64,000 bases of DNA from an uncultured Actinomycetes bacterium (GCA_963794045.1 CAWCCJ010000007.1:177654-241653), one strand, 5' to 3'; positions 17,634 through 56,816 are shown, counted from the first letter of the stretch. The notes: generated from the letters alone by a model not told the origin. Made by a program: numbers and translations.

Positions 17634-17650
17634 GTGGCCGTCCGTCGAGG

Positions 17651-17691: not shown

Positions 17692-17768
17692 TCGATCCGT
17701 AGCGTTTGATGCTGCTGCCCGATGCGGCATGGTCCGACAACGCTGGGACGAGACGGAAAGGATCCACG

Positions 17769-27107: not shown

Positions 27108-27120
27108 CGCATCTGCGTCA
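27105..27120. promoter_or_regulatory. palindrome TGACGCA-N2-TGCGTCA
   Basis: Perfect 7-bp arms that start in the stop codon of the PAS-LuxR gene. The 2-nt spacer is too short for a terminator loop, so it is more likely a protein-binding site. Confidence 0.35.
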
Positions 27121-27188
27121 GCAAGGCCGCGATCCGCGGCGGCCACGATGGCGGTATAGAGAGTCTCGATCTCGATCTCGACCACGTC

Positions 27189-27467: not shown

Positions 27468-27492
27468 CGCATCGCCGACGGCCGCATGACCT
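27452..27492 (+). promoter_or_regulatory. CTTGAC-N5-CTTGAC-N17-TGACCT element facing the DUF1269-like-usp genes
   Basis: ACCTTGACCGAAGCTTGACGC...TGACCT, 40 nt upstream of the 27532 start. Confidence 0.5.
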
Positions 27493-27531
27493 GAGCGTCC
27501 TAGGGTCGCGGGCAAGGAGGCCATCGGTCGA

Positions 27532-28080: not shown

Positions 28081-28107
28081 CGAGATGACTGCCGCCGGCG
28101 CCTCGCT

Positions 28108-28950
28108 ATGAGGGACGCCGGAGTGATCCTCTGCGGCGTCGCCGATAGCGACACGGCCGGGCCGGTAATCGCCCTCGGCCGCCGCTTTGCCGTCGCCTAC
28201 GGCGCGCAGATCAGCGTCGTCCATGCATTCGACGAGCTTGCTGCCGACGCCGAGCAGACGATGGAATCGATCCGGGCCGACACCGCATCCGACGGGTGGA
28301 TCGAGATCCGGCTGGTCGAGGGGCCATCCGCCGACTGCCTGATCGAGATCGCAGAGAGCGAGCGGGCGGAGTGGATCGTCGTCGGCTCCCGCTCGCGCAG
28401 CACGAGCTCCGGAGCCGTTGGGAACGTTCTCCCGCAACTCGCGCGGAGAGCGCCGTGTCCGGTGGTCGTCGTACCACTCGCCGTCGGCAACGGAGTCTCC
28501 AGCCGTCTCGCCGGCCCGGCGTCGATCGTCTGCGGGATCGATGGGTCCGAGCATGCCCTCGCAGCCGCGAGACTCGCCGGTGAGGTCGGCAGTTGCTTCG
28601 GCCTGCGCGTGCTTCTCGTGCACGCGCTGACATCCTCGCCCACAGTCTCGGACGCTGTGGCACCCGACACCGAGCGAATCATGGCGCGGGCGACGGAGGC
28701 GGTGACGAATCCAGGAACCGAGGTGATCGTCGAGCGGGGGCGGCAAGATCACGTGCTCGCGGCGATCGCAGAGCGCGAGAACGCAAGGCTGATCGCGATT
28801 GCAGCCCACGGAACGAGCCGGCTCGAGGCCGCGCACATCGGCTCGGTCGCGAGCTTGCTCACCGCGTCGTCGCCAGTCCCTCTCATCCTCGTGTCGCAAC
28901 GGGCAGAGAGGAGGATCGTCGATCGGCGGACTGCTCCTTCAGCGCACTAG
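28108..28950 (+). CDS. universal stress protein (tandem Usp domains)
   Basis: Two Usp repeats (..WIVVGSRSRS..GNV..QLARRAPCPVVVV / ..LIAIAAHGTS..GSVASLLTASSPVPLILV). Confidence 0.85.
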   Translation: MRDAGVILCGVADSDTAGPVIALGRRFAVAYGAQISVVHAFDELAADAEQTMESIRADTASDGWIEIRLVEGPSADCLIEIAESERAEWIVVGSRSRSTSSGAVGNVLPQLARRAPCPVVVVPLAVGNGVSSRLAGPASIVCGIDGSEHALAAARLAGEVGSCFGLRVLLVHALTSSPTVSDAVAPDTERIMARATEAVTNPGTEVIVERGRQDHVLAAIAERENARLIAIAAHGTSRLEAAHIGSVASLLTASSPVPLILVSQRAERRIVDRRTAPSAH

Positions 28951-30461
28951 GAAAGCGGACAGATCCAGCGAACGATCGTCCCCGCGCCAGGGCGCGCGCG
29001 AACGCGGATCGAGGCGCCGCTCGCCGCAGCTCGCTCGCGCATGTTCGCGAGCCCCTTCCCTTCGACAACCTCACCGGGGACGAAGCCCACGCCCGAGTCC
29101 TGAACAAGCGCAACGACCCGTCGACTCTCCCGCCGGAACCGGATTCGCGCCACTGCGTCGGGACCGGCATGTTTCGATGCGTTCTGCAACGCCTCGACGA
29201 CGACGTAGTAGAGACCATGCTCAGCTGCTTCGTCGAACCGTCCGGGATCCCCGTCGATTGCGATCTCGAGCCGAGCAGTCACGGCCACGTCGCGCACCGC
29301 CCCGGCGACGCCGGCTTTCGCGAGCAGGCTCGGGTACCTGCCGGAAACGATGTCACGGAGATCGGCCGAGGCCGACGAGAGCAGCGCCGACAGTTCTTCC
29401 AGGAGCACGTCGCCGCCGGCGGGATCGTCGGGCGGTGGGTCACGCATGAGCGCCGTCACGAGTTGTGCACCCAGAAGCTGGCGCTGGATCGAGTCGTGGA
29501 GATCCCGCTCCATGCGCTTGCGCTCGGCCACAACCGCCCGCGCGCGTGCTTCCTCACGCTCGTCCTCACGGGCAGCAGCGTCCGTCGCAGCGGCGGCGAC
29601 GTGTCGGCCGACAAGGCGTGCGTACTCGCGCTCGCTCTCGCCCGCCTTCCGGAGCGGGCTGAAGGCGAGAACCAGCACCGGCACTGCGTCCGGCAGCGCA
29701 TTCGTCGGAAGACGGATGCAGAGGACGGACGCATCGGCTCCGCCGTCGATGCGCGCTCTCGCAGCCACGGGCTCGTCGTGGATCTCAAGTGCCGCGGCGA
29801 CAGCCGGGTGGATCGGCCCAAGTGTCAGCGGCAATGGCGTTCCTCGACCGCACGATGCCACGCACGTCGACGTACCTCCACGCACGAGGTGAATCTCGGC
29901 GACTGCCACGTCATCGTCCTCGACGACGGTTGCGACTGCCGTTTCCAGTACTTCGTCGAGCGGCAGGTGCAAGAGTCGCTCATCGAGGGAGTTGAGACAC
30001 CTCAGCCGGCGTTCGCCGATGACCCGCCTCGTCGTCTCGGTGGAGACGAGCAGCACGCCCTCTGGTGTGCCACGGTCGCCGAAAATCGGGCTGTAGGACC
30101 AGGAGAAAAATGCCTCCTCGAGCCCCCGACCCCGGTCGAAGACGAGGGGCGCATCCTCGGACCACGTCGACTCGCCACGAGCGAGGACGGTCTCGAGCAC
30201 CGGCCCGACGACGTCCCAGATCTCGGCGAGGACGACCCGAGCCGGCTGACCGAGGGCCGCAGGGTGCATGTCGCCGAGCGGCTTTCGCTCCGCGTCGTTG
30301 TACAGGAGGATGAGCTCCGGCCCCCAGTAGATCGCGAGCTGAGAGGACGAGTGCAGGATCATCGTCAGCGCCTGCCACAGCGCCTCGGGCCACTCGTCCA
30401 ACGGCCCGAGTGCCGTCGTGCTCCAGTCTCGAGCCGCGATCAACTGCGCAGTCTCGCTCAT
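28947..30461 (-). CDS. sensor histidine kinase (PAS/GAF sensory region, HisKA_3, HATPase_c)
   Basis: H-box ERKRMERDLHDSIQRQLLG (HisKA_3 type), N-box EALQNASKHAG and G-box DSGVGF. The start is taken at ATG 30461, with in-frame alternatives at 30515 and 30602. Confidence 0.8.
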   Translation of the reverse strand: MSETAQLIAARDWSTTALGPLDEWPEALWQALTMILHSSSQLAIYWGPELILLYNDAERKPLGDMHPAALGQPARVVLAEIWDVVGPVLETVLARGESTWSEDAPLVFDRGRGLEEAFFSWSYSPIFGDRGTPEGVLLVSTETTRRVIGERRLRCLNSLDERLLHLPLDEVLETAVATVVEDDDVAVAEIHLVRGGTSTCVASCGRGTPLPLTLGPIHPAVAAALEIHDEPVAARARIDGGADASVLCIRLPTNALPDAVPVLVLAFSPLRKAGESEREYARLVGRHVAAAATDAAAREDEREEARARAVVAERKRMERDLHDSIQRQLLGAQLVTALMRDPPPDDPAGGDVLLEELSALLSSASADLRDIVSGRYPSLLAKAGVAGAVRDVAVTARLEIAIDGDPGRFDEAAEHGLYYVVVEALQNASKHAGPDAVARIRFRRESRRVVALVQDSGVGFVPGEVVEGKGLANMRERAAASGASIRVRARPGAGTIVRWICPLS

Positions 30462-41855: not shown

Positions 41856-41935
41856 GGCTCCCCCGAAAAAGGGCCGTTCAGATCCTCCCGACACAGAGGG
41901 ATCTTGCGCGCGCTGCGATACCCTGTCGCGCACCC

Positions 41936-42026
41936 GGAGAAGTGGCCGAGTGGCTGAAGGCGGCGCCCTGCTAAGGCGTTAGGTGGCTGAATGGCTGCCT
42001 CGAGGGTTCGAATCCCTCCTTCTCCG
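41936..42026 (+). tRNA. tRNA-Ser (anticodon GCU)
   Basis: GGAGAAGTGGCCGAGTGG... with anticodon loop CTGCTAA, a long variable arm and the T-arm GGGTTCGAATCCC. Confidence 0.9.
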
Positions 42027-42660
42027 TCACGAGAGCCCCGCTTCGGCGGGGCTCTCTCTTTTCGGGCACCGGGCGAAGGTGGGCGATGCAGAGCGTCGGC
42101 TCGACGAACGGGTCGAGGCGGTCGACCTCCCGGCCCGCCGCGGAGGCCTCGAGCGCGCCGTCGATGATCCCGCGGTGCAGGCTGCAGATCACGTGTGGCG
42201 CACCTTCGGCAAGTGCGTAGAAGGGACACCGCCGCATCTCGATCCGTTGGCCCGTCTCTTCTGCATCGAAGCCCTCTCGGTCGAGGAGCTCCGCTACAGA
42301 GGAGCCCGGGCTCGCCTCGTGCAGGTGGCGGCCCCAGCGGGCACCGCTCTCGTAGACACGCCCTTCGGCGGCAGAGTCGCGAGCCAGCGTCTCGGTGAGC
42401 ATCATCGCGAGCAGCCGGTACTCGTCCCGGCCTGCGACGACGCCTTCTGCGGTCAGTCGGAACACGACGGCGGGCCGTCCGCGACTCGCCCGCCGCTCGG
42501 GCGCCGAGCGGAGAAGACTCGCTCCCTCGAGCCGGCTCAGGTGCCAGCGAACCGTGTTCGGATGCAGCCCGACGAGCGCCGCCACCTGTGCGGTGTCGAG
42601 CCCGTCCGCGCTCTCCCGGATCGCGCCGAGGATCGCGGTTCGCTGCTGCTCGCCGTCCAT
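41971..42660 (-). CDS. winged-HTH (ArsR-like) transcriptional regulator
   Basis: MDGEQQRTAILGAIRE..LDTAQVAALVGLHPNTVRWHLSRLEGASLL. The 3' end is doubtful because the ORF runs antisense through the terminator and tRNA-Ser(GCU). Confidence 0.65.
   Translation of the reverse strand: MDGEQQRTAILGAIRESADGLDTAQVAALVGLHPNTVRWHLSRLEGASLLRSAPERRASRGRPAVVFRLTAEGVVAGRDEYRLLAMMLTETLARDSAAEGRVYESGARWGRHLHEASPGSSVAELLDREGFDAEETGQRIEMRRCPFYALAEGAPHVICSLHRGIIDGALEASAAGREVDRLDPFVEPTLCIAHLRPVPEKREPRRSGALVTEKEGFEPSRQPFSHLTP
42031..42064 (+). terminator. rho-independent terminator after tRNA-Ser(GCU)
   Basis: GAGAGCCCCGC-TTCG-GCGGGGCTCTC hairpin followed by TCTTTTC. Confidence 0.7.
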
Positions 42661-42793
42661 GGATCGAGCATGCACGCCCTTTTGCACGAGAAGACTCGTA
42701 GAAAACCCTGATCGTGGAGCAGGGAAAACCCAGATTTGGCCGGCGCCATTTCTTCCTACGTTCGTTGGAGAAAACCAGACGACCGGAGGAGCA

Positions 42794-43954
42794 ATGAGCT
42801 CGTACAGCGCAGGTGGCCACGAATCCGACAACAGTGTCCTTCTCAAGCTCTTCGCCCTCTTCGCGGGGATCACCGTGCCCGTCGTGATGATCGTCGGGCT
42901 GTTTCTCGCGATCTCGGCGCACAACGCCCGGGATGACGCGCGCCACGCCGCGGCGACAGCCGCCAAGACGTCTGCTCCTTCAATGCCGGGAATGGCGATG
43001 CCCGCAGCAAGCTCAGCCGCTCACGGCGCGGTCGCCACGCCAAGCTTCGCCGGCGTCGCCCCCGAGAACGCAGACGCTCTGGCGATGAGCCATGCGGCGT
43101 TCCCGGCGACGCTCCCTGCCGCCCCCCCAGGCGCAGTCGCGAACGTCCGCCTCGACATCAGCCATTCGACGGTCTCCATCGCTCCGGGGATCAAGTACGA
43201 GGCCTGGGCGTTCGGGAGCACTGCGCCCGGCGCCGTGATCCACGTGCGCGTGGGGCAGACGGTGCGGGTGACGCTGCACAACGCGTCGCCGATGCCGCAC
43301 TCGGTCGACTTCCACGCCGCCGAGATAGCTCCGAACGTCGCGTTCTCCGACGTGCTGCCGGGGAAGAACAAGACGTTCTCCTTCGTCGCGAAGGTGCCGG
43401 GTGTGTTCATGTATCACTGCGGGACCGCCCCCGCCTTCATGCACATCGCCAACGGCATGTACGGCGCGATCGTCGTCGAGCCCGCGAACATGCCGAAGGC
43501 CGACCGCGAGTACGTCCTCGTCGGCAGCGAGTGGTACCTGAACAAGGCCGGCCTCGGCTCGCCGGCGAGCCTCGACCTGACGAAGGCCGAGCAGATGACG
43601 CCGGACTGGGTCACCTGGAACGGGTACGCGGGGCAGTACAAGACGCACCCGCTCACTGCAAATCCCGGGCAGATCGTCCGCTTCTGGGTTGTCGACGCAG
43701 GCCCGAGCCTCAATACGGAGTTCCATGTCGTCGGGACCGTGCTGTCCCGCGCCTGGATCAACGCGGATCTCGTCGATGCGCCGCAGCACGACATCCAGAC
43801 GGCGGTTGTGCCGGCCGGTGGCGGCGGCGTGTTCGACGTGAAGATAGACAAACCCGGGATCTACCCGTTCGTGTCGCACAGCTTCGCGAGCGTGCAGATG
43901 GGCCAGGTCGGCCTCCTCAACGTCGGTCACGTGCCGGGCACGATGAGCCACTGA
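42794..43954 (+). CDS. nirK: copper-containing nitrite reductase (NirK-like), N-terminally membrane-anchored
   Basis: GGAGGA Shine-Dalgarno sequence. It has PHSVDFHAAE (T1/T2 Cu His and catalytic Asp), YHCGTAPAFMHIANGM (His-Cys...His...Met) and one N-terminal TM helix. Confidence 0.8.
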   Translation: MSSYSAGGHESDNSVLLKLFALFAGITVPVVMIVGLFLAISAHNARDDARHAAATAAKTSAPSMPGMAMPAASSAAHGAVATPSFAGVAPENADALAMSHAAFPATLPAAPPGAVANVRLDISHSTVSIAPGIKYEAWAFGSTAPGAVIHVRVGQTVRVTLHNASPMPHSVDFHAAEIAPNVAFSDVLPGKNKTFSFVAKVPGVFMYHCGTAPAFMHIANGMYGAIVVEPANMPKADREYVLVGSEWYLNKAGLGSPASLDLTKAEQMTPDWVTWNGYAGQYKTHPLTANPGQIVRFWVVDAGPSLNTEFHVVGTVLSRAWINADLVDAPQHDIQTAVVPAGGGGVFDVKIDKPGIYPFVSHSFASVQMGQVGLLNVGHVPGTMSH

Positions 43955-43973
43955 TTCTGCGGGTCGCCGAAAA

Positions 43974-44014
43974 GGGAGAAGCCCCGCCGGAGCGGGGCTT
44001 CTCCCTTCTGATTT
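43974..44014. terminator. bidirectional rho-independent terminator (nirK / tRNA-Ser GGA)
   Basis: GGGAGAAGCCCCGC-CGGA-GCGGGGCTTCTCCC hairpin flanked by an A-run upstream and a T-run downstream. Confidence 0.7.
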
Positions 44015-44036
44015 CAAGCGCTCGAACACAGCGAGC

Positions 44037-44125
44037 GGAGAGGGCGGGATTTGAACCCGCGACGCACCTTTCAGCACGTACGCGATTTCCAGTCGCGCTC
44101 CTTAGACCACTCGGACACCTCTCCG
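44037..44125 (-). tRNA. tRNA-Ser (anticodon GGA)
   Basis: The reverse complement is GGAGAGGTGTCCGAGTGGTCTAAGGAGCGCGACTGGAAATCGCG... with a long variable arm and the T-arm GGGTTCAAATCCC. Confidence 0.9.
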
Positions 44126-44179
44126 AGCGACGCGCAGGGTACCGCCTCACGTGTCGCTCCTCGCTACCATCGGGCCGCC

Positions 44180-44268
44180 GGAGGGGTGGCAGAGCGGTCG
44201 AATGCGGCGGTCTCGAAAACCGTTATCCGTCGTTAGGCGGATCGAGGGTTCAAATCCCTCCCCCTCCG
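44180..44268 (+). tRNA. tRNA-Ser (anticodon CGA)
   Basis: GGAGGGGTGGCAGAGCGGTCGAATGCGGCGGTCTCGAAAACCGT... with a long variable arm and the T-arm GAGGGTTCAAATCCCTC. Confidence 0.9.
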
Positions 44269-44270
44269 CT
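44210..44270 (+). repeat. attL-like copy of a 61-nt direct repeat (3' part of tRNA-Ser CGA)
   Basis: Matches 53737-53797 at 60 of 61 positions (G44232 versus A53759). The repeat starts in the anticodon loop. Confidence 0.8.
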
Positions 44271-44475
44271 AAATCTAAGAAGGTGCAGGGCTTCCTCCGG
44301 AGCTCCCTCAGTGTGGCAGCCGGATGAAAGTGTCGTGGCCAGATCTGCAAACGCCCCGCAAACATGGGCCGTCCCGACCGCGAGCCACGCAACACACGCA
44401 CCGTCGCGAAGGGGTCGGGTCGGAGGCGCAGAGCACTCGTGGCCGGTCGCGTCGCACCGGGTTCAAGGGATAAGC

Positions 44476-45294
44476 ATGAGCCGGAGCTGCTCGGGGTCTG
44501 AGACGAGAGGAGGCGCCGGGGGTCGCGGTCGCGTGTTTCCGGTCGGGTATGCCACAGCGCGGAGCGAGCGTGATGAATTTCGTACGCCGGGCGTATACGT
44601 GCTGGCAGGGGCGTCGGAGGATCCCAAATTCGAGGCGCGCGTTTACGTCGGCGAGGCAGACGACCCGCGGAGCCGGCTTGACAACCACAGCGCCAATAAG
44701 GACTTCTGGAACCGCGTCGTCCTCTTCACGAGTGTTGGCCAGAGCCTCAACAAGGCGACGGTGCGCTACCTAGAAGCGCGGCTACTCCAACTGGCGTCTG
44801 CCGCCGGACGCGCGCTTCTCGACAACGGGAACGCGCCATCGCTTCCGCCTTTATCGGAGCCTGATCGAGTGGACGCAGGGTCATTCCTCGGCGACATGCT
44901 CGTGATCTACCCACTCCTGGGCCTAAACGTCTCCGAGCCCGTGGAATCGCTCCTGCCGACTGCTCTCCGGCTCTATCTCAACGGCCCAGAGGCATCGGCA
45001 GAGGGCGCGCAGGCTGAAGACGGGTTCGTCGTCTTCGCGGGCGCAACGGCGCGAACCGCGATGGTCGACTCAATGCCGGATTGGGCTGCGGGCATTCGGC
45101 AGGCTCTAGTTCAGTTGGGCGTATTCGTCCCCGACGTGAATCCGGCACGGTTGCGCCTCACGCAAGACCATGTCTTCAACTCCCCCTCGGCCGCTGCAGC
45201 CGTTCTCCTCGGGCGATCGGCAGCCGGGCCGGTCGAGTGGAAGGACGCTTCCGAAGAAACCCTTAAGAGTCTCCGAGAAAAAGCGATCCTGTAG
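44476..45294 (+). CDS. GIY-YIG nuclease domain / DUF4357 protein
   Basis: GVYVLAG...VYVGEADDPRSRLDNH...FWNRVVLF (GIY-YIG) plus a C-terminal FNSPSAAAAVLLGRSAAGPVEWK (DUF4357-like). Confidence 0.7.
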   Translation: MSRSCSGSETRGGAGGRGRVFPVGYATARSERDEFRTPGVYVLAGASEDPKFEARVYVGEADDPRSRLDNHSANKDFWNRVVLFTSVGQSLNKATVRYLEARLLQLASAAGRALLDNGNAPSLPPLSEPDRVDAGSFLGDMLVIYPLLGLNVSEPVESLLPTALRLYLNGPEASAEGAQAEDGFVVFAGATARTAMVDSMPDWAAGIRQALVQLGVFVPDVNPARLRLTQDHVFNSPSAAAAVLLGRSAAGPVEWKDASEETLKSLREKAIL

Positions 45295-45337
45295 CGCAGA
45301 AGCCGCCACGAGCCGCGCTGCCTCGTTCAAGCGCCCG

Positions 45338-46502
45338 TCAGCGCGTCGGCGCGAGCTCGCGCGCCGCGGTGAGCGACTCGCCGGTGACGGCGTCGAAGAA
45401 GTGCAGCCGCGACGTGTCGACGTGGAGGCGCGTCTGCTGACCCTCGCGCGCGACAGCGCCCCGCTCGACGCGGGCGATGAACGGTGCTGCCGTGATGGTG
45501 CGTCTGCTCGTCTGCCGCCTCGAGCGCCTCCTCGCCGACGATCTCCACCAGCTCCGCCGCCGTCACGGGGGGCGCGTCGACGGCGAAATGGAGGTACACC
45601 TCGGCGCCCATGTCTTCCTTGATGTCGACCGTGACGTCGAGGGGCGCGCCCTCCCCGGGCGGTGCGTGATGTCCTCGGGGCGGATGCCGAGCGGCGACCG
45701 CGGCCGCGCGCCTCGAGCCCGCGGCGGGCACGGGCAGCTCGTGCGGCCCGAAGCGCACGACGAGGCCGCCGCCGCGCTCGACGAGCTCGGCCTCGACGAG
45801 GTTCATCGCCGGCGAGCCGATGAAGCCCGCGACGAAGAGGTTCGCCGGCGCGGTCGTAGAGAACCTGCGGCCGGTCGACCTGCTGGAGGAAGCCCGCCGC
45901 GCATCACGCAGACGCGGTCGCCGAGCGTCATCGCCTCGCTCTGGTCGTGCGTGACGTAGATCGTCGTCACGCCGAGGTCGCGCTGGATCCGGGCGATCTC
46001 GGCCCGCATCTGGACGCGCAGCTTCGCGTCGAGATTCGAGAGCGGCTCGTCCATGAGGAAGGCCTGCGGCTCGCGGACGATCGCACGGCCCATCGCGACG
46101 CGCTGCCGCTGGCCGCCGGAGAGGTGGCGCGGCCGCTTCGTCAGCACCTCGCGTGAGGCCGAGGATCCGCGCCGCGGCCTCGACGCGGCGCCGGATCTCG
46201 CCCTGTCGATCGCCGCGCATCTTCAGCCCGAAGCCCATGTTGTCGTAGACGTTCATGTGCGGGTAGAGCGCGTAGTTCTGGAAGATCATCGCCATGTCGC
46301 GCGCCTTCGGCGGCAGGTCGTTGACGACCTCGCCGCCGACGCGGACCGTGCCGCCGGTGATCTCCTCGAGACCCGCGATCATCCGTAGCGCGCTCGTCTT
46401 GCCGCACCCGGACGGCCCGACGAAGACGACGAACTCGCCGTCGGCGATCTCGAGGTCGAGCTCGTGGACGGCGCGCGTGCCGTCGGCGTAGACCTTCGTC
46501 AA
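45338..46502 (-). pseudogene. sugar ABC transporter ATPase (MalK/UgpC-like), multiple frameshifts
   Basis: Walker A (GPSGCGKTS) is in one frame. [16 protein letters not shown], Walker B and the H-loop are in a second frame (45803-46147). The C-terminal regulatory domain is spread over two more frames. Confidence 0.75.
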
Positions 46503-46600
46503 GCCGCTCGAGCTCGATGGCCGCCACGGGCCGGAACCCTAGACGGCCCGCCGCGGGTTTGCAACGACAGGCCGACCGACCACATAGAGTCCTGCCGCAC

Positions 46601-47537
46601 ATGGCAGCGGTGGCGGCCGCACGGGGAAGCCGGACGCGATCGGCTCCGGTACGTCACGGAGCGTCGCGGGTTCCTCGCGACGCTCCTCATCTCCCCTGCC
46701 GTTCTCTTCATCGCCGCGCTCGTCGGCGTCGCCGCTCGTGCTCGCCGCGTACCTCAGCTTCACCGACGCGCAGGCCGGCTCGCTCACCGGCAGGTGGGTC
46801 GGCCTCGCCAACTTCCGCAGCGCGCTGCACGACCCGATCTTCCGCGGCGCGCTCTGGCACACGTTCCTGTTCACGCGTGATCTCCCAGTCGTCGTCGATC
46901 GTCTGCGCCGGCCTGCTCGCTCACGCGCTCGTGCGCACGTTCCGCGGGCGCTGGCTGCTCCGCTTCTCTGATCCTCCTGCCCTGGGCGGCGCCGATCGCG
47001 CTGACCGCATCGGCTTCCTCTGGTTCTACGACCCGCAGGCGTCCATCTTCAACTGGTTCCTGATCAAGCTGCACATCGTCGACGCCGCTGAACAAGCCGA
47101 ACTGGCTCGGCACGCCGAAGGTGCGATGGCGTCGATCATCACCGTGCAGGCATGGCGGACGATCCCGTTCGCGACGGTGATCTTCATCGCCGGAATCTCT
47201 TCGATCCCGCAGGAGGTCGACGACGCCGCCGCGATCGACGGCGCGACGGGGTTGCGCAAGTTCTGGTACGTCTCGCTGCCGCTGCAGCTGCCGATTGCGC
47301 TCGTCGCGGTTCTCTTCGGAATCGTGTTCACGGCGACCGACATGGTCGTGCCGTACATCCTCACGAACGGCGGCCCGTTCAACTCGACGCAGATGATCAC
47401 GACGTGGGCCTTCCACGACGGGCATCAACTCGGGGAACATCGGCGAGGGCGCGGCGATCTCGCTCTTCCTCCTGCCCGTACTGGCGGTCGTCGCGATCGG
47501 GATGCTCTTCTTCGCGCGCAGGGCGGAGGTGACGTAG
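46601..47537 (+). pseudogene. ABC sugar permease 1 (MalF/UgpA-like), multiple frameshifts
   Basis: The TM segments and the EAA loop (IPQEVDDAAAIDGATGLRKFWYVSLP) are recoverable only by joining three or more frames. Confidence 0.65.
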
Positions 47538-47540
47538 CTC

Positions 47541-48367
47541 GTGGCGCTGCGCCGTCACCTGTTCACGTACGGCATCGCAATGCCCTTCGCGATCGTGCTC
47601 GCGTTCCCGTTCTTCTGGATGGCGGTCACGTCGTTCAAGCCCGAAGCCGAGGTCTACGACCCGACGAAGGCGTGGCGCTTCCACCCGACCCTCGCCAGCT
47701 ACCGGTTCCTCTTCCAGCACACCGATTACGTCCGCTGGATCGCGCAACTCGTGCTTCGTCGGGCTGCTCGTGGTCGCGATCACGCTCGTGGTCGCGCTGC
47801 CGGCCGGCTACGCGCTCGCGCGCCTTTCGGGCCGCGTCGGGCCGGAGCATGGGCGTCGCCATCTTCCTCACCTACCTCGTGCCGCCGACGCTGCTCTTCC
47901 TGCCGCTGTCGCGCGTCGTCGCCCAGTACCTGCACCTGAGCGATCGGCTCTGGGCGCTCGTGATCGTCTATCCGTCGTTCACGATCCCGTTTGCGATCTG
48001 GCTGCTGATGGGCTTCTTCAAGACGATTCCGCAGGAGCTCGAGGACGCCGCCCTGATCGACGGCTGCTCGCGGCTCGGCTCGCTCGTGCGCGTCGTGTTC
48101 CCCATCTCGGTTCCGGGGATCCTGACGGTCGTCATCTTCACGTTCTCCCTCGTGATCAACGAGTTCGTCTACGCGATCACGTTCATCTCCAGCGCCGCGA
48201 ACCGAACGCTCACGGTCGGCGTGCCGACCGACCTCATCCGCGGCGATCTCTTCAACTGGCCCGGGATCATGGCCGCGATCCTGATCCCGAGCATCCCACT
48301 GGCCCTGATCTACAACGCGTTCCTCAACCGGTTCATCGCCGGGTTCACAGGCGGGGCATTCCGCTAG
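47541..48367 (+). pseudogene. ABC sugar permease 2 (MalG/UgpE-like), frameshifted
   Basis: The N-terminus (47541 frame) and the C-terminus with the EAA loop (IPQELEDAALIDGCSRLGSLVRVVFP) are in one frame. The central part needs another frame between about 47750 and 47850. Confidence 0.65.
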
Positions 48368-48386
48368 AAGGAAGGAGGCAAGTCAC

Positions 48387-49758
48387 GTGTCAGTGGATGA
48401 CAGGAAGATCAGCAGACGCGACCTGCTGAAGAAGGGAGCAGCCGGAGCGGCCGCTCTCGGGGTGTCGGGCGCGGCCGCGCCGTTCTCCTTCGCCGGTCCG
48501 ATGAAGTTCAAGAACAAGCACCTGAAGGGCGATCTCTCGATCATCCAGTGGGTTCACTTCGTGCCGGCCTACGACGACTGGTTCGACAACACCTGGGTGA
48601 AGCAGTGGGGCGAGAAGAACGACGTCCAGGTCAACGGTCGAGCACATCAACAACACGCTGCTCGACACGCGCGCAGCCGCCGAGGTCGCTGCGCAGAGCG
48701 GGTCACGACCTCTTCATGAACCTCCACCCGATGGCCGCGTACGAGGACCAGGTGATCAACCACGCGAACATCGTCAAGGAGATCCAGAAGAAGGTCGGCC
48801 CGTACAGCCAGCTCGGGAAGCTGAGCACGTACAACCCGAAGACGAAGAAGTACTTCGCCGTCTCCGACAACTACGTGCCGGACCCCGTCGTCTGGCGGCA
48901 AGCGATCTCTGGAACGGTGTCGGCGAGGCTCCGTACACCTGGGATCACGTCCGCAAGGCGGCTCCGAAGCTGAAGGCCGCCGGCCATCCGATCGGGATCG
49001 GGCAGTCGCAGGAGCTCGACTCGAACATGGCGCTGCTCGCGTTCATGATGTGCTTCGGCGCGTTCGTGCAGGGCGCCAACAACCGCCCCACGCTGAACAC
49101 GAAGAAGACCGTCCAGGCCGTGAAGTTCATGGTCAACATGTACAAGAGCGGCGAGGACCCGGCGATCTTCGGCTGGAACCCCGCGTCGAACAACAACTAT
49201 CTGTACTCCGGTACGGCGTCGATGATCCTCAACGCGATCTCGGCGACGCGCACGCCGGAGGACCAGAACCTGCCGTTCTCGGATCAGCTGCAGATCTGGC
49301 CGATCCCGATCGGGCCACACGGCCGGTTCGGCCTCGAGCACGTCATGGGCTGCTACAGCATCTGGAAGTTCGCGCAGAACAAGGAGAACGCGTCGCAGTT
49401 CCTCATCGACCTCTGCGTGAACTACAAGCAGGCGACGCTCGCGTCGAAGCTCTACAACTTCCCGAGCTTCCCGGGTGCGTTCCCGTTCAGACAGATCCGC
49501 AAGGCCGCCGCGGCCGACGCCCACAAGCCTCGCGGCAAGTACACCATCCTGACGACGATCGCCGAAAAGTACACGCACAACATCGGCTACCCGGGCACCT
49601 ACAACGCTGCCATGGACGAGGTCTTCACGAAGTACCTCATCCCGCAGATGTTCGCCCAGGTGTCGCAGGGCAAGCTGAGCGCGGAGGACTCCGTCAGGCA
49701 GACGGCGTCGGCCGTGAACCAGATCTACGCGAAGTGGAAGGGCGCAGGCAAGATCTAG
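48387..49758 (+). pseudogene. ABC sugar-binding protein with Tat signal, frameshifted
   Basis: The Tat motif SRRDLLKKGAAGAAALG is present. The protein is split over ORFs 48387-48719, 48548-48973 and 49027-49758. Confidence 0.7.
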
Positions 49759-49761
49759 GCG

Positions 49762-50616
49762 CTAGACGACGACGACCGACTTGCCGCCGCGCTGGTTCTG
49801 CCACGCGGCGGCAACGGCGTTCAGCTCGAACGTCTGGTAGTCCAGCCTGATCCGCCCCGCGGCGAGGTGGTCGAGCAGCTCGAGGTAGGCGCGGTCGCGC
49901 TCTTCCTTCGAGAGCGCGAAGTTCGAGTGCCCCATGACGACGAGCTCCTTGCCGCGCACGTCGGTCGACCGGAGCGGCGCCTGGGGGCCGGCCGACTGGC
50001 CGAGGTGGACGACCCGCGCGTGCGGCTGCGCGTACTGCAGCGCGTCGGCGAGCGGCGCGCCCCAGACCGGGTCGATGCAGACCGTGAAGCCCTCGTCGCC
50101 GAACTCCGCGGGGATCCGGTCGAGGTCCTTGCTGCCGACGGCGACGACCGTCGCGGCGCCGAGCAGCTCGGCCGCCTGGGCGGCGAGCCTGCCGACGCTG
50201 CCGGTGCCTCCGAGGACGAGCACCCTGTCGCCCGGGCCGACCTTCGCCTTCCACGCCACCGGCACCCACGCGGCGATGCCGGCGATCCCGGCGGCGACGG
50301 CGAGCGCAGGGTCGGCGCCGTCGGGGAGGCGGAGCGCCAGCTCGGCGGGCACGTCGACGCGCTCGGCCATGAATCCGTCGCGGCCGATCCCGCGACCCTC
50401 GCCGAAGAGGTAGACGAGCGCGCCGTCGCCGTCGCGCGCGACGGCCTCGCAGCCCGGCACGTACGGGAGCGGCGGGTGCCCGCCGTAGAACGTGCCGTTG
50501 GCGACGGCCAGGTCGAGTGGGTTGAGCGCGACGGCCACGATCGGCAGCCCTGCCACGTCCTCGATCTCGACGGGCGCCGGCGGCGACTTCAGCTCGGTGA
50601 CATGCGCTGCTCGCAC
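49762..50616 (-). CDS. quinone oxidoreductase-type MDR (zinc-binding dehydrogenase family)
   Basis: An intact 284-aa ORF with a GGTGSVGRLAAQAA Rossmann motif. Confidence 0.8.
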   Translation of the reverse strand: MRAAHVTELKSPPAPVEIEDVAGLPIVAVALNPLDLAVANGTFYGGHPPLPYVPGCEAVARDGDGALVYLFGEGRGIGRDGFMAERVDVPAELALRLPDGADPALAVAAGIAGIAAWVPVAWKAKVGPGDRVLVLGGTGSVGRLAAQAAELLGAATVVAVGSKDLDRIPAEFGDEGFTVCIDPVWGAPLADALQYAQPHARVVHLGQSAGPQAPLRSTDVRGKELVVMGHSNFALSKEERDRAYLELLDHLAAGRIRLDYQTFELNAVAAAWQNQRGGKSVVVV

Positions 50617-51098
50617 GCTGCGACGATAAACGCGCCAGCGTCTGGGGCAGCACTAGGGTTGCGCGGTGCCCCCCGAGGCCTGGACACCTGCCAACCGATC
50701 CTCGCCGATTTCCGGTCGACGCCCGGCACCCAAGAGAACCGGACGCCCTGAAGAGCCTTCTTATGGGCTAGGCGGACAAGCGTACGGCTAGGCAAAACGC
50801 TCGGTTTGGGTTCCCCTCGCGCGCGCGAGGACGCGGGGTTACGCGACCACGTGGATGAAAGCCACCGAGCGCGATCGTGGCGTTAGAGAGCCTCTGAGCG
50901 CTTCGCGGAGCGATCTCTTGTGACCAACCGAATCTGTTAAGAGCGCCTCGGCGACCGCTTTCGTTCCGTCGTTGCCTGCAGCTGCGCTCGGTCTCCGCTC
51001 AAGTCCGCCAATGACCGCTTGGTGAGCTGCATCACTGGCGCGCAACTCGTGATTGGACGCATCGCGCGGGTGGGTGCCGTTCCGCTTGCAGCCGGTAT

Positions 51099-51587
51099 CT
51101 AGAACGGAATGTAGTTCGGGTTGTCTGGGTCGTACGTTGAAAGCCGCTTGCGGATACGCCCGTAGTCGAGAGCGGATCGCTCCACGCCAAAGTTGCCGAC
51201 GAGTTTCTTGAAGTCATCCGGCTCGGCGTTGTTGATTTCGTAGTTGCTGAACCTGTGTATCTCCCATCCCTGGCGACGCAGTGAGCGTTCGATACGCAGA
51301 TTCCGCGTGTACCGCTCCTCGCTGACGTTGTAGCGGCGTTTCACTTCATCAAACGTCGCCTAGTGGCTCGGGCCATCGATTTCGATGACGCACTTACGGC
51401 GGCTTGCGAACAGGACGAAATCCACTCGCTGTTCAAGCGGGGCGCGCCGGTAATGAGGCGGCTCACCGCTTCCAAGCATCCGCGCGACCGTCCGACGATT
51501 GATCCCGAGCCGGTCAGCGATCTCTCGCTGCGAGAGCCCATCCGCCGCCAACGCCCGCGCCCACTCCAACGCGCTCCGCACCTCCAC
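51099..51587 (-). pseudogene. HTH plus DUF559/Vsr-like endonuclease domain interrupted by an in-frame TAG
   Basis: The reading ...VDFVLFASRRKCVIEIDGPSH-TAG-ATFDEVKRRY...RSLRRQGWEIHRF stays in a single frame. The N-terminus GLSQREIADRLGINRRTVARML is transposase/resolvase-like. Confidence 0.6.
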
Positions 51588-51640
51588 ACCTCTCGCTCGA
51601 CATCGCCGACCAGTCGAGCCTCAAAGACGAGGCAGACAGC

Positions 51641-52381
51641 TCAGCGACGCCGCACGTGGTGCACCTTTCGACTGCCGATCCTGGCGCAGTATTGGGCTGC
51701 CGACATCAACAACGCCAGTTCGTCACCGACAGCTCGCGCAGCAGTTCGCGACCGAGGCGCATCAGAGCAGTCGTGAGCGGGACGACCGCACCCTCGCCCA
51801 GGGTCGGCAAGCTGCTTGCGAACGATCACGCGGCCGCACGTCCGCGTCTCGGACAGGGCTGGCCCGCGCAGAGGTGACGCGCTCACGGTCGCCAACCAAT
51901 GGCCGATGGTCGGAGCGATCCTCTTGTGTACGCGAGCCGCATGCGCACGCCAGGACGCCCTTTGGCGGGTGGCCGCTACCGATCCCCTCGGCCGCGTGCG
52001 CCTGATCGACCGGCGCGCGAGGTAGAGCATCTCTGGCGCCAAGTCAGTCGCAACTAATGATCGAACATGACGCGACACCCGTCTGGTCACTAGACCCGTT
52101 CCTGCTCCAAGCTCGAGAACATCATCCTTCTGACGCGGCCGCGCTGCTGCAACCAGCGCGTCGGCGATTGGCGTGTACCCCGGCGCGATCAGCTCAGCGT
52201 AGGCTGCGGCGCGTCGTATCCCATTCCCACTCGGGCCTGCCCACAGCACCGCGCTCACCAATCGAGAATCCTGCGCCGCCAACGAGGTAACCCCGACGAC
52301 CGAACCACAGGTCAGACAGCGCCGAAACAACCTGTATCGGTGCATGCGGTCCGCGCCACTCGGTAGGGTCGCCGCAACCAA
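51641..52381 (-). pseudogene. class I SAM methyltransferase fragment
   Basis: Only the N-terminal part is protein-like (DDVLELGAGTGLVTRRVS..LVATDLAPEML). The rest of the ORF is low-complexity Arg/Ala. Confidence 0.35.
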
Positions 52382-52916
52382 ATGGCAGCCACCGGACGCA
52401 GGCGGGCTGCGAATATCCGCCCAGCCGAGTCCCGTCTAACGATCTTCGAGAAAGAAGACGTCGGCGCGGCTCGGTTTCACTGCCTCGGCTCGGGGCGCCT
52501 GAAACGCGAATACGTCCGCCAGCAGTTCGAGCGTCGCCTCGTCGTGCGTTGCACGCTCGGCGTCCCGCTGGGCCTGCGCCAACTGCCACCGGCGGAGCAA
52601 GCGGTCGTCAACGTTGCTCATCCCGGCGATTATCGGCTCGTTTTCCCAGCTTCTGAAGGGCGTCTTGGCTTGCTGCTGGGAACAAGGAGGCACGGTAGAG
52701 AAACCGACTTGACGGAGGCGCTAGCTTCCGCCGCGGCTCGAATCCGGATTAGGTTCGACCAGGCCGATGCACCTCGGTCTTGCCCCGGCTGTCTGAAACC
52801 CAGGGCGCAAAGAAACGATCCACCCCGACCGGGAGCTGATGCGGAATCGACTGCCCAACAGGCAACCGCACGGTGTCCCGATGGTTCTTTTCTGCTCCGA
52901 AGGGAATCGTCGGCTC

Positions 52917-53186
52917 ATGTTTGCGCGGATCGAATCGTTTCGGGCGGGGCCGGACGATATGGACGAGCTCCTATCGGCGCAGCATCGGGCTGTCGGTGTC
53001 GTTCGCACCCTGCCCGGAAACATGGGCGGCTATGTCCTTGTGAATCGTGACGTCGGTCGATTGCTGAGCGTCACGTTCTGGCGGTCAATCGACGAACGAC
53101 AGGCTGCCGAAGACGAATTCGCTGCCGCGCCGGTCGCAGGCGAGGTGGACGAATACGACATCGCCATGCAGGAATCGCTCGGCTAA
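52917..53186 (+). CDS. small ABM (antibiotic biosynthesis monooxygenase)-like protein
   Basis: MFARIESFRAGPDDMDELL...GGYVLVNRDVGRLLSVTFWRSIDERQAAE has a ferredoxin-like ABM pattern. The call is weak. Confidence 0.4.
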   Translation: MFARIESFRAGPDDMDELLSAQHRAVGVVRTLPGNMGGYVLVNRDVGRLLSVTFWRSIDERQAAEDEFAAAPVAGEVDEYDIAMQESLG

Positions 53187-53736
53187 GGCTAGACCAAGGC
53201 GCGGTCGGCCGCAGCAAAAGCATCGCTGTTAGAGCGCGTAGTCATCACGGAGTTGCGTCTCGTCCGCGTTTGGCGCGGGGATCATCCTCCTCGGCAAGTT
53301 CGCCTGATTCGTCGATCTTCTCGACAACCCAATAGCGCGAGCTGCTCATATCGACGACGCTTTCGATCTCGTCGGTGAGGACCTCGGCGTACGCGAACGA
53401 ACGCGGCCAGCATCGCCTCACCTCCAGGACGCTACGTCGCATCCTGTGAGCAAGACAGGAGGGTGTCCATCATCCATCGCACCACGATCGCTTTCACCCT
53501 CCCGCAAGCGGGCGTCGACAGATAGGGAACGCACACTGCACGACGGAGCTGCGTCGCGCCCTTGCTGCGATGGAGGCCCGCTTCCAAGCACGGGCCAAGC
53601 ACCCCCGCTCCGAAACAGATCTTCCCACCCCGCTCCGCGGCGCTTCGTTTTTCCTCAAGCGACGTCGCTTGAGCAAACTGTCGCGCGAAATGTCGCGCAG
53701 CAGCCGGGAACGGCTCAACCACGCCGTTCCGGCCTT

Positions 53737-53797
53737 GTCTCGAAAACCGTTATCCGTCATTAGGCGGATCGAGGGTTCAAATCCCTCCCCCTCCGCT
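53737..53797 (+). repeat. attR-like copy of the 61-nt direct repeat (orphan 3' part of tRNA-Ser CGA)
   Basis: Runs from the anticodon loop to the acceptor end, with no matching 5' half upstream. A strong terminator follows immediately. Confidence 0.8.
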
Positions 53798-53806
53798 CAA
53801 TGAGCG

Positions 53807-53840
53807 AAAACCCGTGCAGGCGCACGGGTTTTCTTGTTTT
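53807..53840 (+). terminator. rho-independent terminator after the orphan tRNA-Ser 3' fragment
   Basis: AAAACCCGTGC-AGGC-GCACGGG hairpin followed by TTTTCTTGTTTT. Confidence 0.7.
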
Positions 53841-53849
53841 AGACGGCTG

Positions 53850-54845
53850 CCGCGTCTTCCGCCCAAGGCGCACTGCAGGACGTTTTTCTGCTCTCGGCGT
53901 GCAGGCGGAGCCGGTCATCTTCGGCGACTTCGGGCTGGAGACGGTGCGTGAGCAGCTCCTCGCCTTGCATGGCGTCTCGTCTGGGTGAACCCGATCGAGC
54001 AGGGGCTGGATCGCTGGAAGCTCGACCCACTGCTGCGCGAGGTGGCGTGCGCGGGCGTCTGGGTCGAGCGCGCACCCGGACCTGATCATGCGCATGGCAA
54101 CCAAGCGCGTCCTCTACGACACGCGCGAGATGAGCTGGGGCACGGACACCCGTCTCTATCTCTCCGTCGACGAGTTGCGAGACGGCCTCGCGTCGCGTCT
54201 CGACGACTCCGCCGCGCGCGTGCTCAAACCGCAGCGCGGGATGGGCGGGCAGGGGTCTGGAAGGTCGAACTCTCCGAAGCAGGCGACGACCAACTTCTGC
54301 GGGTTCAGCACGCGACGCGTGAGGCACCGATCGAGACGATCCACCTCGGCGAGTTCGCCGATCGTGCGCTTCTTACTCGAGGACGGCGGTCTGATGGTCG
54401 AGCAGCCCTTCCAGGAGCGGATCGCCGAGGGAATGATCCGCGTCTACCTCACCCACGACGAAGTCGTCGGTTTCGCGCATCAGTATCCCGCCGGGCTCCG
54501 TCCCGCATCCGCCGGAGAACCGCCGCCCGGGAAGCGGTTCGAGGTCGCGAGTGCCGAGCAGTTCCGGTCGCTGCGCGAGCGGGTCGAGTCTGAATGGGTG
54601 CCGGAGCTGCAGCGCGGCTCGACCTCGACGGGGAGTCCTTGCCGGTCGTCTGGGACATCGACTTCCTCTATGGGCCGAAAACCGACGGCGACGCGGAGAG
54701 CTACGTCCTCTGCGAGATCAACGCCAGCTCCACGTTCGCCTTCCCCGAACACGCGATGCCCGGCGTCGCCGCAGCCGCTCTCAACGGATCGGAGCGAAGG
54801 CCTATCTCAGCGATGCTCGATGCGGGCGCCGAGCCGGGAACGTGA
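53850..54845 (+). pseudogene. Cj0069-family (ATP-grasp-like) protein, multiple frameshifts
   Basis: Conserved blocks (VNPIEQGLDRWKLDPLLREV; RMATKRVLYDTREMSWGTDT; GVWKVELS; GMIRVYLTHDEVVGFAHQ; LPVVWDIDFLYGPK..YVLCEINASS) lie in three alternating frames. Confidence 0.55.
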
Positions 54846-54924
54846 TGGCCGAAGCGGAGACCTCGAGAGGTCGGATGCCGCTCGCCGAGGCTGAGGACCG
54901 CCTCCGGCGGGACCCGCTCGCTCG

Positions 54925-55410
54925 TCAGCTCGACACCGCCTGCGCGTGCGATCGCATCGTGCAGCGGCCGGAGCCACGTGTGCTCGAGGAGGACGACGGC
55001 GGCAGAGGTGTCGTTCCAAGTGCCTGCGTGATCCGGAAGAGGTCGTCGTCGTCGAAGATGTGACCGTCTGCCATCTCCGCGGCACCGGCGATCGCGCCGC
55101 GGTCGAACCCGTCCGGCCCCTCTGACAGGAAGCCCGCGAGGCCGCCGAAGTACGAGCCGAGTGACGTCGCCTGCTCCCAGTCGAGATCGCTCCCGGTCGT
55201 CACCATCACGTTTCCCGTCGCGTCCTTGCGCACGAGCATCAGATCGAGGACGCGGACGATTCCCTTCCGCTGAGGTCCTCGAGCTCGGGCAGGATCTCGC
55301 CTCTGAACTCGATTGCCCGGGAAGGCGAGCGCGAGCATCTGGATCGGGCAGAGATCCTCGGCCGGTTCGTCCACGCTGGATAGCGAACAGCCTCCGAGGC
55401 CGCCGACCAT
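54925..55410 (-). pseudogene. DUF6325/DUF1269-like protein, three or more frameshifts
   Basis: AFPGN, then EFRGEILPELEDL (other frame), then GIVRVLDLMLVRKDATGNV. The C-terminal SAAVVLLEHTWLRPLHDAIARAGG is again in another frame. Confidence 0.55.
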
Positions 55411-55434
55411 CGCCCGATCGGGATGAATTCTCCG

Positions 55435-55730
55435 TTAGTCGTGGATGCGCGCGAGCAGCTCGTGCCGCCGCACGACCTTCGTCCGCGTGCCCGCGAGCCG
55501 GACGTCGTAGCCCGCCTCCTTGAGGAACAGGACCTTGTCGCCCGGCGCGACGCCTTCGGCGTCGGGCCGACCGCGGTCACGATCCCGCTCTGGCATTGCG
55601 TCTCCGCGCTCGCCGGCAGGATCAGGCCCGCGCGCGTCTCCGCCTCCTCATCCGACGGCTCGACGACGATGAAGTCGTCGAGCGGCTCGAGCGTGAACGG
55701 ATCGGACGCGGATCCTCCGCACGCTTTCAC
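55435..55730 (-). pseudogene. GroES-like co-chaperonin, single-nt frameshift
   Basis: LEPLDDFIVVEPSDEEAETRAGLILP..GIVTAVGP continues as DAEGVAPGDKVLFLKEAGYDV..ELLARIHD in the next frame. The length of 296 nt is not a multiple of 3. Confidence 0.6.
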
Positions 55731-55742
55731 GATACTCCGGTC

Positions 55743-56816
55743 ATGCCGTCGCCGTTCGTCGAGCTCGAGGTGGGGGATCGGGTCGTGAAAGTCACGAATC
55801 CGGACAAGGTCTATTTCCCGGCGCGCGGCGAGACGAAGCGGGATCTCGTCGAGTACTTCATCGCCGTCGGCGACGGCATCGTGCGGGCTTTGCACGAGCG
55901 TCCGTGTCAACTGAAGCGCCAGCCGGAAGGCGTCGGCGGCGAGGTGATCTGGCAGAAGCGCGTGCCGCAGAAGCGGCCCGACTGGATCGAGACTGCACGG
56001 GTGACGTTCCCCTCGGGGCGGCATGCGGACGAGCTGTGCGTGACCGAAGTCGCGCACGTCGTCTGGGCCGCAAATCTCGCGACGCTCGAGTTCGGCGCGT
56101 GGCCGTCGCGCCGTCGCGATCCGGAGAAGCCCGACGAGCTGCGCATCGACATCGACCCGCAGCCCGGCACCGGATTCTCCGAGGCGAAGCGCGTCGCAGC
56201 CATCGTCCACGAGGTGCTGGACGAGATCGGCTTCGTCGGCTGGCCGAAGACGAGCGGCAACCGTGGGATCCACGTGTACTGCCGCATCGAGCCGAACTGG
56301 GAATTCCGCGTCGTGCGCCGAGCAGCCCTCGCCTTTGCGCGTGAGATCGAGCGCCGCGATCGGACGCTCGTCACGACCGCGTGGTGGAAGGAGGAGCGAG
56401 GGGAGCGCGTCTTCGTCGACTACAACCAGAATGCGCGCGACCGGACGATCCTCTCCGCGTACTCGGTGCGCGGCCGGCCGGATGCAACGGTCTCGGCGCC
56501 GATCACGTGGGACGAGCTTCCCGAGGTCGAGACCGAGGACTTCACCATCGCCTCGATGCCCCCGCGCTTTGCGAGCCTCGGCGACCTGCACCGAGGGATC
56601 GACGAGGCCGTCTGCGACCTTCGCGTGCTGCTCGAGTGGGTCGAGCGCGAGGAATCCGAAGGTGTCGGCGAGGCGCCGTACCCGCCGAACTTCCCGAAGA
56701 TGCCGGGCGAGCCGCCGCGCGTGCAGCCCTCGCGCGCTAAGAAGAAATGGAGCAGTTGCTCGACCGAGAGGTCGTCGGGCCGACGCGGCGGCCGCACTTC
56801 GCGCCACGTGCACTGA
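55743..56816 (+). CDS. LigD-type primase-polymerase (NHEJ polymerase domain)
   Basis: VTNPDKVYFP, KTSGNRGIHVYCRI and VFVDYNQNARDRTILSAYSVR motifs. The last 25 or so codons overlap the convergent ligase ORF. Confidence 0.8.
   Translation: MPSPFVELEVGDRVVKVTNPDKVYFPARGETKRDLVEYFIAVGDGIVRALHERPCQLKRQPEGVGGEVIWQKRVPQKRPDWIETARVTFPSGRHADELCVTEVAHVVWAANLATLEFGAWPSRRRDPEKPDELRIDIDPQPGTGFSEAKRVAAIVHEVLDEIGFVGWPKTSGNRGIHVYCRIEPNWEFRVVRRAALAFAREIERRDRTLVTTAWWKEERGERVFVDYNQNARDRTILSAYSVRGRPDATVSAPITWDELPEVETEDFTIASMPPRFASLGDLHRGIDEAVCDLRVLLEWVEREESEGVGEAPYPPNFPKMPGEPPRVQPSRAKKKWSSCSTERSSGRRGGRTSRHVH

Follow-up and report, generated by a model that had tools for sequence, protein, structure and literature searches.

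The question raised by this locus is how a segment of 9.5 kb came to lie between an intact tRNA-Ser(CGA) gene and a displaced copy of the 3' part of the same gene in a soil actinobacterium of the family Gaiellaceae. In the present study, we analysed a stretch of 64,000 nucleotides, called here the window (an uncultured Actinomycetes bacterium, GCA_963794045.1 CAWCCJ010000007.1:177654-241653), in which the original prediction had placed an immobilised, integrase-less island at 44180-53840. We consider it likely that the two repeats are attL and attR sites left by a tyrosine-integrase element, of which the integration module was later deleted and the interior remodelled, and the relic sits within a larger hypervariable locus around three tRNA-Ser genes. 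According to this proposal, the attP site of the element would have recombined with the segment of tRNA-Ser(CGA) that runs from the anticodon stem to the 3' end, which would regenerate the tRNA at one end and displace the original 3' fragment to the other. The integration module would have been lost afterwards, and remodelling would have turned the interior into a mosaic of a truncated DUF4357 gene, a copy of an ABC transporter/oxidoreductase module, an IS21 stub and fragments of DUF559 and methyltransferase genes. The G+C content of the window is about 68-70%, with about 0.9-1.0 at third codon positions (GC3) in genuine genes, and the NirK-like gene to the left of the tRNAs shares 70-85% identity with proteins from metagenome-assembled genomes (MAGs) of Gaiellaceae/Thermoleophilia.

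The tRNA genes of the window were called by ARAGORN and Rfam, and both recovered the intact tRNA-Ser(CGA) on the plus strand at 44180-44269 (the other call ends at 44268). As had been claimed from the sequence, the 3' part of this gene with its flank recurs downstream: 44210-44270 matches 53737-53797 over 61 nt in direct orientation with one mismatch, and the block of identity begins in the anticodon stem (tRNA position 31). When extended, the repeat measures 65 nt with two mismatches, the putative attL occupying 44210-44274 (plus strand, from tRNA position 31 through the 3' end and 5 nt beyond) and the putative attR 53737-53801, on the same strand and 9.5 kb downstream. A near-identity of 61 nt cannot arise by chance in 64 kb, and no third copy of the repeat was found in the window, where the other matches were 20-25-nt T-arm similarities to other tRNA-Ser genes. 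The distal copy gave no tRNA call by ARAGORN or Rfam and the 40 nt upstream of it have no relation to the tRNA 5' half, so that it is indeed a fragment without a 5' half. It carries an A at a variable-loop position at which all 80 of the metagenome loci compared below have a G; thus, the dead distal copy has mutated. A permuted "tmRNA*" reported by ARAGORN at 44178-44955, anchored on tRNA-Ser(CGA), was rejected as spurious, Rfam giving no tmRNA match.

The strongest evidence comes from related loci. Metagenomes were scanned with the 59-nt 3' part of the tRNA as query, which returned at least 120 matches, and 80 loci were compared. The full 90-nt tRNA-Ser(CGA) was identical to that of the window in about 65 of the 80; in about 10 the 5' half was missing, these being orphan tRNA fragments like the one in the window, and a few contigs began inside the gene. 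A complete pair, that is, an intact gene with a downstream repeat, was present in at least five loci: L070 (58-nt perfect repeat, 5.3 kb apart, with a tyrosine integrase), L101 (59 nt, 3.7 kb apart), L108 (58 nt, 2.5 kb), L081 (60 nt, 1.3 kb) and L085/L083 (56 nt, 0.74 kb). In addition, locus L041 has two tRNA fragments in tandem. The repeats of the relatives all begin at tRNA position 31-35, as in the window, and the boundary of the window's repeat was met, within 4 nt on either side, in at least 15 independent fragments. A start in the anticodon stem is one of the attP classes catalogued for islands in tRNA genes, or tDNA islands (PMC4383910).

The L070 pair is informative in that it retains its enzyme. 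The integrase has 420 aa, matches PF00589 with an E-value of 3.5e-21 and lies on the strand opposite to the tRNA, at a distance of 170 nt; the same element carries an Xre-type helix-turn-helix (HTH_3) gene, and a second integrase, 56% identical to that of L070, was found in L065. Furthermore, the sequence 3' of the distal repeat in L070 equals the flank 3' of the intact tRNA in L111, and by this comparison L070 and L111 form an occupied/empty pair for the 5.3-kb element (L070 oriented 891-6328). In L101, what comes after the distal repeat is the native neighbour, tRNA-Ser(GGA). No integrase match was obtained from the longest open reading frames (ORFs) between the repeats of L101 and L108, and between those of L081 and L085/L083 there was no ORF of 180 aa or more, a Pfam scan not being made there; from these ORF results, integrase-less relics appear common at tRNA-Ser(CGA). 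The attL/attR signature of a tyrosine integrase that had been proposed for the window is therefore borne out in relatives, whose repeats have this architecture and lie at these tRNA positions, in one case together with a tyrosine integrase and a matching empty site, and the compared loci indicate that tRNA-Ser(CGA) is, in Gaiellaceae, a hotspot at which integration recurs.

Two other origins of the distal fragment bear on the same evidence. One is an assembly duplication or a chimeric join, since the source is probably a metagenome-assembled contig and many metagenome contigs break at tRNA-Ser(CGA). We regard it as extremely unlikely, because the two copies are distinguished by 1-2 mismatches and lie between wholly unlike flanks, other samples provide at least six independent contigs with the architecture of a tRNA plus a fragment, and an independent short-read contig (L001) matches the interior with 99.9% identity over 49567-50736, a span in which no indel site is covered. 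The other is a duplication made without an integrase, by illegitimate recombination or by a homing-type event through the nuclease-like DUF4357 protein, whose gene adjoins attL while no integrase is present. The latter is just as improbable: homing creates no direct repeats of its target, the boundary at tRNA position 31 is common to at least 10 independent fragments, an integrase accompanies one of the complete pairs, and the DUF4357 gene is truncated with no detected GIY-YIG domain.

The DUF4357-family ORF (44476-45294, plus strand) encodes 272 aa, has low GC3, is 5'-truncated and gives a product identical to the database protein P0001. By alignment, it lacks the conserved N-terminal residues, about 40 of them, of a family of about 288 aa. 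Its only significant domain is PF14267, as is also the case in the full-length homologue P0004, and NCBIfam gave no match; a GIY-YIG domain was not detected by Pfam in either protein, but a pattern GVYVL...IYVGE...R...E can be read by eye in the alignment of the family. Thus, of the GIY-YIG/DUF4357 gene originally described beside attL, the DUF4357 part stands, while the GIY-YIG part was not detected and the N-terminus is missing. Look-ups of the window's DUF4357 protein and of a truncated 110-aa product of the sugar-binding protein (SBP) gene described below found neither on record. The DUF4357 protein was considered as the mobility enzyme and rejected, as the gene is truncated and the integrase explanation is directly supported by relatives.

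Integrases and other mobile genes were searched for between the repeats with Pfam at E<=0.1. The scan covered all three plus-strand frames of 44262-53810 and, on the minus strand, three frames over about 44262-45330 and 50590-53810, with only the ATPase and oxidoreductase frames in the middle stretch. No integrase (PF00589), recombinase, excisionase or transposase domain was found in these frames, and tblastn of the L070 and L065 integrases against the window had no match below E 0.1. Likewise, the frames scanned contained no gene for transfer (FtsK/Tra), replication or excision, and no Pfam domain of phage structural, packaging or lysis genes (on the minus strand at the two ends only). The 59-nt att pattern was absent from 2.9 M viral contigs, and 50640-53840 gave no match in a comparison with plasmids. 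These results agree with the original prediction that no integrase, excisionase or transfer gene lies between the repeats and that the element is immobilised; because no integrase is left, the segment can no longer excise.

The surroundings of the distal repeat were also inspected. An intrinsic-terminator-like hairpin with a T-run lies on the plus strand at 53806-53840, 5 nt past the repeat, with a 12-bp stem (53806-53833, +7), and it is homologous to a hairpin found 3' of tRNA-Ser(CGA) in several relatives. In the window, no terminator-like site was found after the intact tRNA-Ser(CGA), and tRNA-Ser(GCT) has its own terminator at 42031-42056. The observation of a strong terminator behind the distal copy and none behind the intact tRNA was therefore correct. 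A near-perfect hairpin with a 10-bp stem can be read from the plus strand at 53704-53732, immediately ahead of the distal repeat and on its island side; part of an attP arm may survive in it, and L098 has 9 nt in common with the window at this hairpin. Another conserved motif, GGCTTGA[GA]CAAGC..., is shared by loci L041, L086 and L088 at the corresponding place beside the distal repeat. It is possible that such motifs and hairpins beside distal repeats are attP-arm remnants of element subfamilies.

The extent of the variable region was mapped by blastn of the 80 loci against the window. Conserved left-flank sequence ends at about 41766 and the conserved right flank begins at 55436, and in relatives both flanks adjoin a cluster of tRNA-Ser genes for GCT, CGA and GGA. 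In L037 and L064 the two flanks are joined by little beyond the three tRNA genes, L036 has a tight GCT-CGA-GGA cluster abutting the right flank, and L085, L070, L069, L055 and others carry unrelated insertions of 2-12 kb downstream of CGA. A tblastx search of 42030-55440 against the 80 loci gave tRNA matches only, and none of the 80 had protein-level similarity to 44.3-53.7 kb or 53.84-55.43 kb. Because the flanks of relatives are bridged by tRNA genes and no interior is shared, about 13.4 kb (about 42030-55436) is locus-specific, and the extent first assigned to the island, 44180-53840, has to be replaced by this wider variable region. It had also been asked whether relatives without the repeat keep the same genes after the tRNA; the window's 44.3-55.4 kb content was carried by none of the 80 loci.

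The left edge of the variable locus is tRNA-Ser(GCT) at 41935-42028 on the plus strand, followed by a two-gene cassette (42070-43960) of an ArsR-like regulator on the minus strand and the NirK-like multicopper protein on the plus strand (42794-43954). Next comes tRNA-Ser(GGA), called by ARAGORN and Rfam on the minus strand at 44035-44124, divergent from CGA and 55 nt from it; in relatives it is usually downstream of CGA on the same strand. The cassette is thus wedged between the convergent GCT and GGA genes. It has no window-specific indels and no att-like repeat was seen around it, and the ArsR/NirK pair is kept as a unit in 31 Gaiellaceae/Thermoleophilia genomes, never beside tRNA-Ser. Among the 80 loci, the three tRNA-Ser genes occur in at least five different orders or orientations between the same conserved flanks, and the order in the window, GCT(+), cassette, GGA(-), CGA(+), island, fragment, 1.6 kb and right flank, is unique. 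Such variation points to inversions that occurred repeatedly and broke at the tRNA genes, possibly through integrases.

Most of the interior is taken up by a five-gene module at 45347-50634. It comprises a MalK-type ABC ATPase (45327-46502, minus strand), two ABC permease genes (46600-48367, plus strand), the SBP gene (48387-49758, plus strand) and, as its last gene, an intact quinone-oxidoreductase-like gene of 284 aa (49762-50616, minus strand). An identical oxidoreductase occurs in the samples ERR11593394 and ERR15964294. The order ATPase(-), permease, permease, SBP, oxidoreductase(-) is kept in four genomic contexts (L153, L154/L156, L155 and L157), which are clearly chromosomal, have different neighbours and share 83-88% nt identity with the module. 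In addition, over 100 protein clusters, several of them labelled Gaiellaceae, share 81-89% aa identity with the SBP, and the GC3 of the module is about 0.95, equal to that of host genes. From these comparisons, the block is taken to be a conserved Gaiellaceae chromosomal module; the cargo list of the original prediction was broadly right in gene content, but the ABC/quinone-oxidoreductase block is not typical foreign cargo.

These findings support a different account of the interior, in which the att scar is genuine, yet the greater part of what lies between the repeats did not arrive as cargo; the ABC/oxidoreductase module would be resident or recombined-in Gaiellaceae chromosomal DNA, placed there by later rearrangements of the tRNA cluster, such as inversions or transpositions that broke at the tRNA genes. 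The collinear chromosomal copies in L153-L157, the host-like GC3, the many close SBP relatives, the variable tRNA-Ser order with the unique GGA(-)/CGA(+) arrangement of the window, and the truncated genes at the inner and outer junctions all speak in its favour. However, the module was near tRNA-Ser(CGA) in none of the 80 contexts, and its usual neighbours (a BBE oxidase, Paa genes and a peptidase C15) are not in the window, so that its position is not accounted for by a simple local rearrangement; an element that captured the module, or homologous transfer out of a related donor, would fit no less well. We therefore hold this account to be possible, though clearly the less probable one. The module may have come with the element, by later recombination from a related genome, or from rearranged resident DNA, and the data are compatible with either kind of source.

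Several observations weigh against the proposal of a tyrosine-integrase element and have to be set beside the evidence from relatives. Of the 9.5 kb between the repeats, 5.3 kb is the conserved chromosomal module and not recognisable mobile-element DNA, hence the interior may not be "cargo" at all. There is no integrase remnant, and the responsible integrase family cannot be tied to the copy in the window. The empty site that had been predicted, with the tRNA followed by the 53807 terminator and a Cj0069-like gene, gave no hit as an exact pattern in the metagenomes, nor was an exact empty site for the window's own insertion found among them; likewise, in a genome scan with the NirK neighbour, none of 31 relatives had a tRNA-Ser nearby and no empty site was seen. 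In some relatives a similar terminator-like hairpin follows the intact tRNA copy, which weakens the original argument that the insertion had separated the tRNA from its terminator. Finally, the DNA to the right of attR is a truncated gene, and the junctions are therefore disturbed. This gene, of the Cj0069/DUF6815 family (53894-54806, plus strand), begins only at codon 37 or so, is absent from the tRNA-Ser locus in relatives and has seven window-unique 1-nt indels between 53976 and 54784, six deletions and one insertion. The last stretch before the right flank, 54925-55430 on the minus strand, holds apparently frame-broken ORF remnants without a Pfam match.

The decay of the island was the other part of the claim, and here the indels of the ABC module were examined by aligning the window with three relatives. 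The alignment gave 20 window-unique frameshifting indels, all within 45485-48899, at 45485, 45662, 45724, 45850, 45893, 46153, 46504, 46635, 46729, 46897, 46968, 47009, 47081, 47123, 47413, 47745, 47839, 48635, 48699 and 48899. Seven of them break the frame of the ATPase, ten those of the permeases, and three are frameshifting insertions in the SBP gene (48635, 48699 and 48899); 18 of the 20 are insertions of 1-2 nt, mostly outside homopolymers. No further frameshifting indel occurs in the 1.7 kb that follow (SBP C-terminus and oxidoreductase), the last 860 nt of the SBP gene having none against about five expected. In addition, window-unique substitutions at sites conserved among relatives amount to 1.3-5% in the indel-dense part and to 6-7% in the oxidoreductase, which is intact. 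Under natural decay, one would expect extra substitutions, a preponderance of deletions and damage over the whole of a dead SBP gene, so the pattern looks partly technical. The description of a frameshift-riddled ABC operon is accordingly true of the sequence as given, while the indel pattern makes consensus error a real possibility.

If the frameshifts in the ABC, Cj0069 and GroES-like genes are errors of consensus or polishing, the operon would be intact and functional and the region less decayed. The insertion bias without a rise in substitutions, the mostly non-homopolymer positions and the stop of the indels inside the SBP gene favour such an explanation; so do the long-read MAG assemblies to which related contigs of the same kind belong, and the window-specific 1-nt indels of conserved flank genes (40431, 55564, 57644 and 61612). 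Against it, the density of indels is very uneven, with none in the NirK cassette, the LigD-polymerase gene, 59.5-60.7 kb and the oxidoreductase, and the bias in the Cj0069 gene is opposite, which is odd for a single error process. Some of the damage is structural and beyond the reach of indel error, namely the 5' truncation of two genes, the methyltransferase stub and an in-frame stop seemingly read through in another sample, and the SBP-region protein is absent from the protein collection while the neighbouring DUF4357 protein is present, consistent with a pseudogene annotation by the depositor. Taken together, we consider assembly error and real decay to be about evenly balanced.

A further suggestion is that the insertions are real and represent scars of repeated double-strand breaks closed by mutagenic, LigD-dependent end joining, the genes for both LigD polymerase and ligase being found about 2 kb further right. 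It is speculation and very improbable; if true, a redundant core-operon copy would here be decaying through indels alone, with a bias towards insertions. At 56420-56816, the ORFs of the LigD polymerase (+) and the ATP-dependent ligase (-), which converge, share about 400 nt, and both extend well beyond the end of the GC3 signal and of homology. Window-specific indels were also recorded in the flanks at 40431, 41524, 55564, 57644 and 61612 (four of 1 nt and one of 5 nt) in genes that are intact in 5-24 relatives; that at 55564 is in the GroES-like gene (55438-55740) and that at 57644 in the ATP-dependent ligase. These flank-gene indels are either background assembly error or scattered pseudogenes.

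Between the module and the distal repeat, a lower-GC stretch at 50650-53703 has no steady coding frame and holds fragments only. These are an IS21-like HTH stub with a DUF559-like fragment (51099-51620, minus strand, stop at 51360-51362), an S-adenosylmethionine (SAM)-methyltransferase stub (about 51983-52120, minus strand) and an ABM-like fragment (about 52917-53099, plus strand). The HTH at 51430-51620 (-) resembles IS21 IstA over about 45 N-terminal residues (NF033546, E 1.3e-6, a score of 28 bits where the cutoff is 160) and includes a GEPPHYRR motif, and no IS21 DDE domain or IstB was matched in the frames scanned; from its sequence, this HTH upstream of the DUF559-like fragment is probably an insertion-sequence stub. 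In a contig of ERR15964294 (Logan), the DUF559-like ORF measures 108 aa, a length that requires reading through the window's stop at 51360-51362, and this stop may be strain-polymorphic. Elsewhere in the window, no clear GC3 coding frame was seen at 14273-15148, 16528-17830 and 25959-29378 (up to 3.4 kb), stretches that may be foreign or degraded; a tRNA-Val at 15032-15103 is the only Rfam match within them.

When compared with known systems, the segment resembles most closely the tDNA islands of the Islander catalogue, which are tyrosine-integrase islands in tRNA or tmRNA genes (PMC4383910). Like them, it has an intact tRNA at one end, a displaced direct 3' fragment at the other, a start in the anticodon stem-loop and a recurrently used site. 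Unlike them, it has no integrase, for which it would fail the Islander filter, and its interior is mostly a conserved module with gene fragments and no recognisable phage, integrative conjugative element or plasmid set. The L070 element (Ga0308175_100000039) uses the same tRNA-Ser(CGA) in the same orientation, with a repeat that runs to the 3' end from position 33 (31 in the window), in the same neighbourhood of left flank, GCT, CGA, element, GGA and right flank; it differs in its retained integrase and Xre-type HTH gene and in its perfect repeats, and shares no sequence with the window's interior. The segments of L101, L108, L081 and L085/L083 (0.7-3.7 kb) are att-flanked, integrase-less and at the same site, and so are relics of the same kind, but they are shorter, have other content and none carries the ABC/oxidoreductase module.

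Among actinomycetes, the integrative elements pSAM2 and SLP1 integrate into tRNA 3' ends. The window segment shares with them a high-GC actinobacterial host, integration at a tRNA 3' end and identity segments of about 50-60 nt, whereas no replication, transfer (FtsK/Tra-like), excisionase or integrase gene was detected in it. The segment is a degenerate member of the known tDNA-island class and not a new kind of element.

The relic is thus a textbook product of tRNA-targeted integration and adds no new mechanism. It also serves as a caution, as dense frameshifts in a MAG need a check against the reads before a pseudogene is called, and the shuffling of the tRNA cluster together with the insertion-only frameshift pattern are the sole points that may be worth a further look. 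For the biology of the family, the value is descriptive: uncultured soil Gaiellaceae have in tRNA-Ser(CGA) a heavily used hotspot of integration, L070 and L111 provide one occupied/empty pair for a small integrase element of these bacteria, and the three-tRNA-Ser locus is a hotspot of rearrangement.

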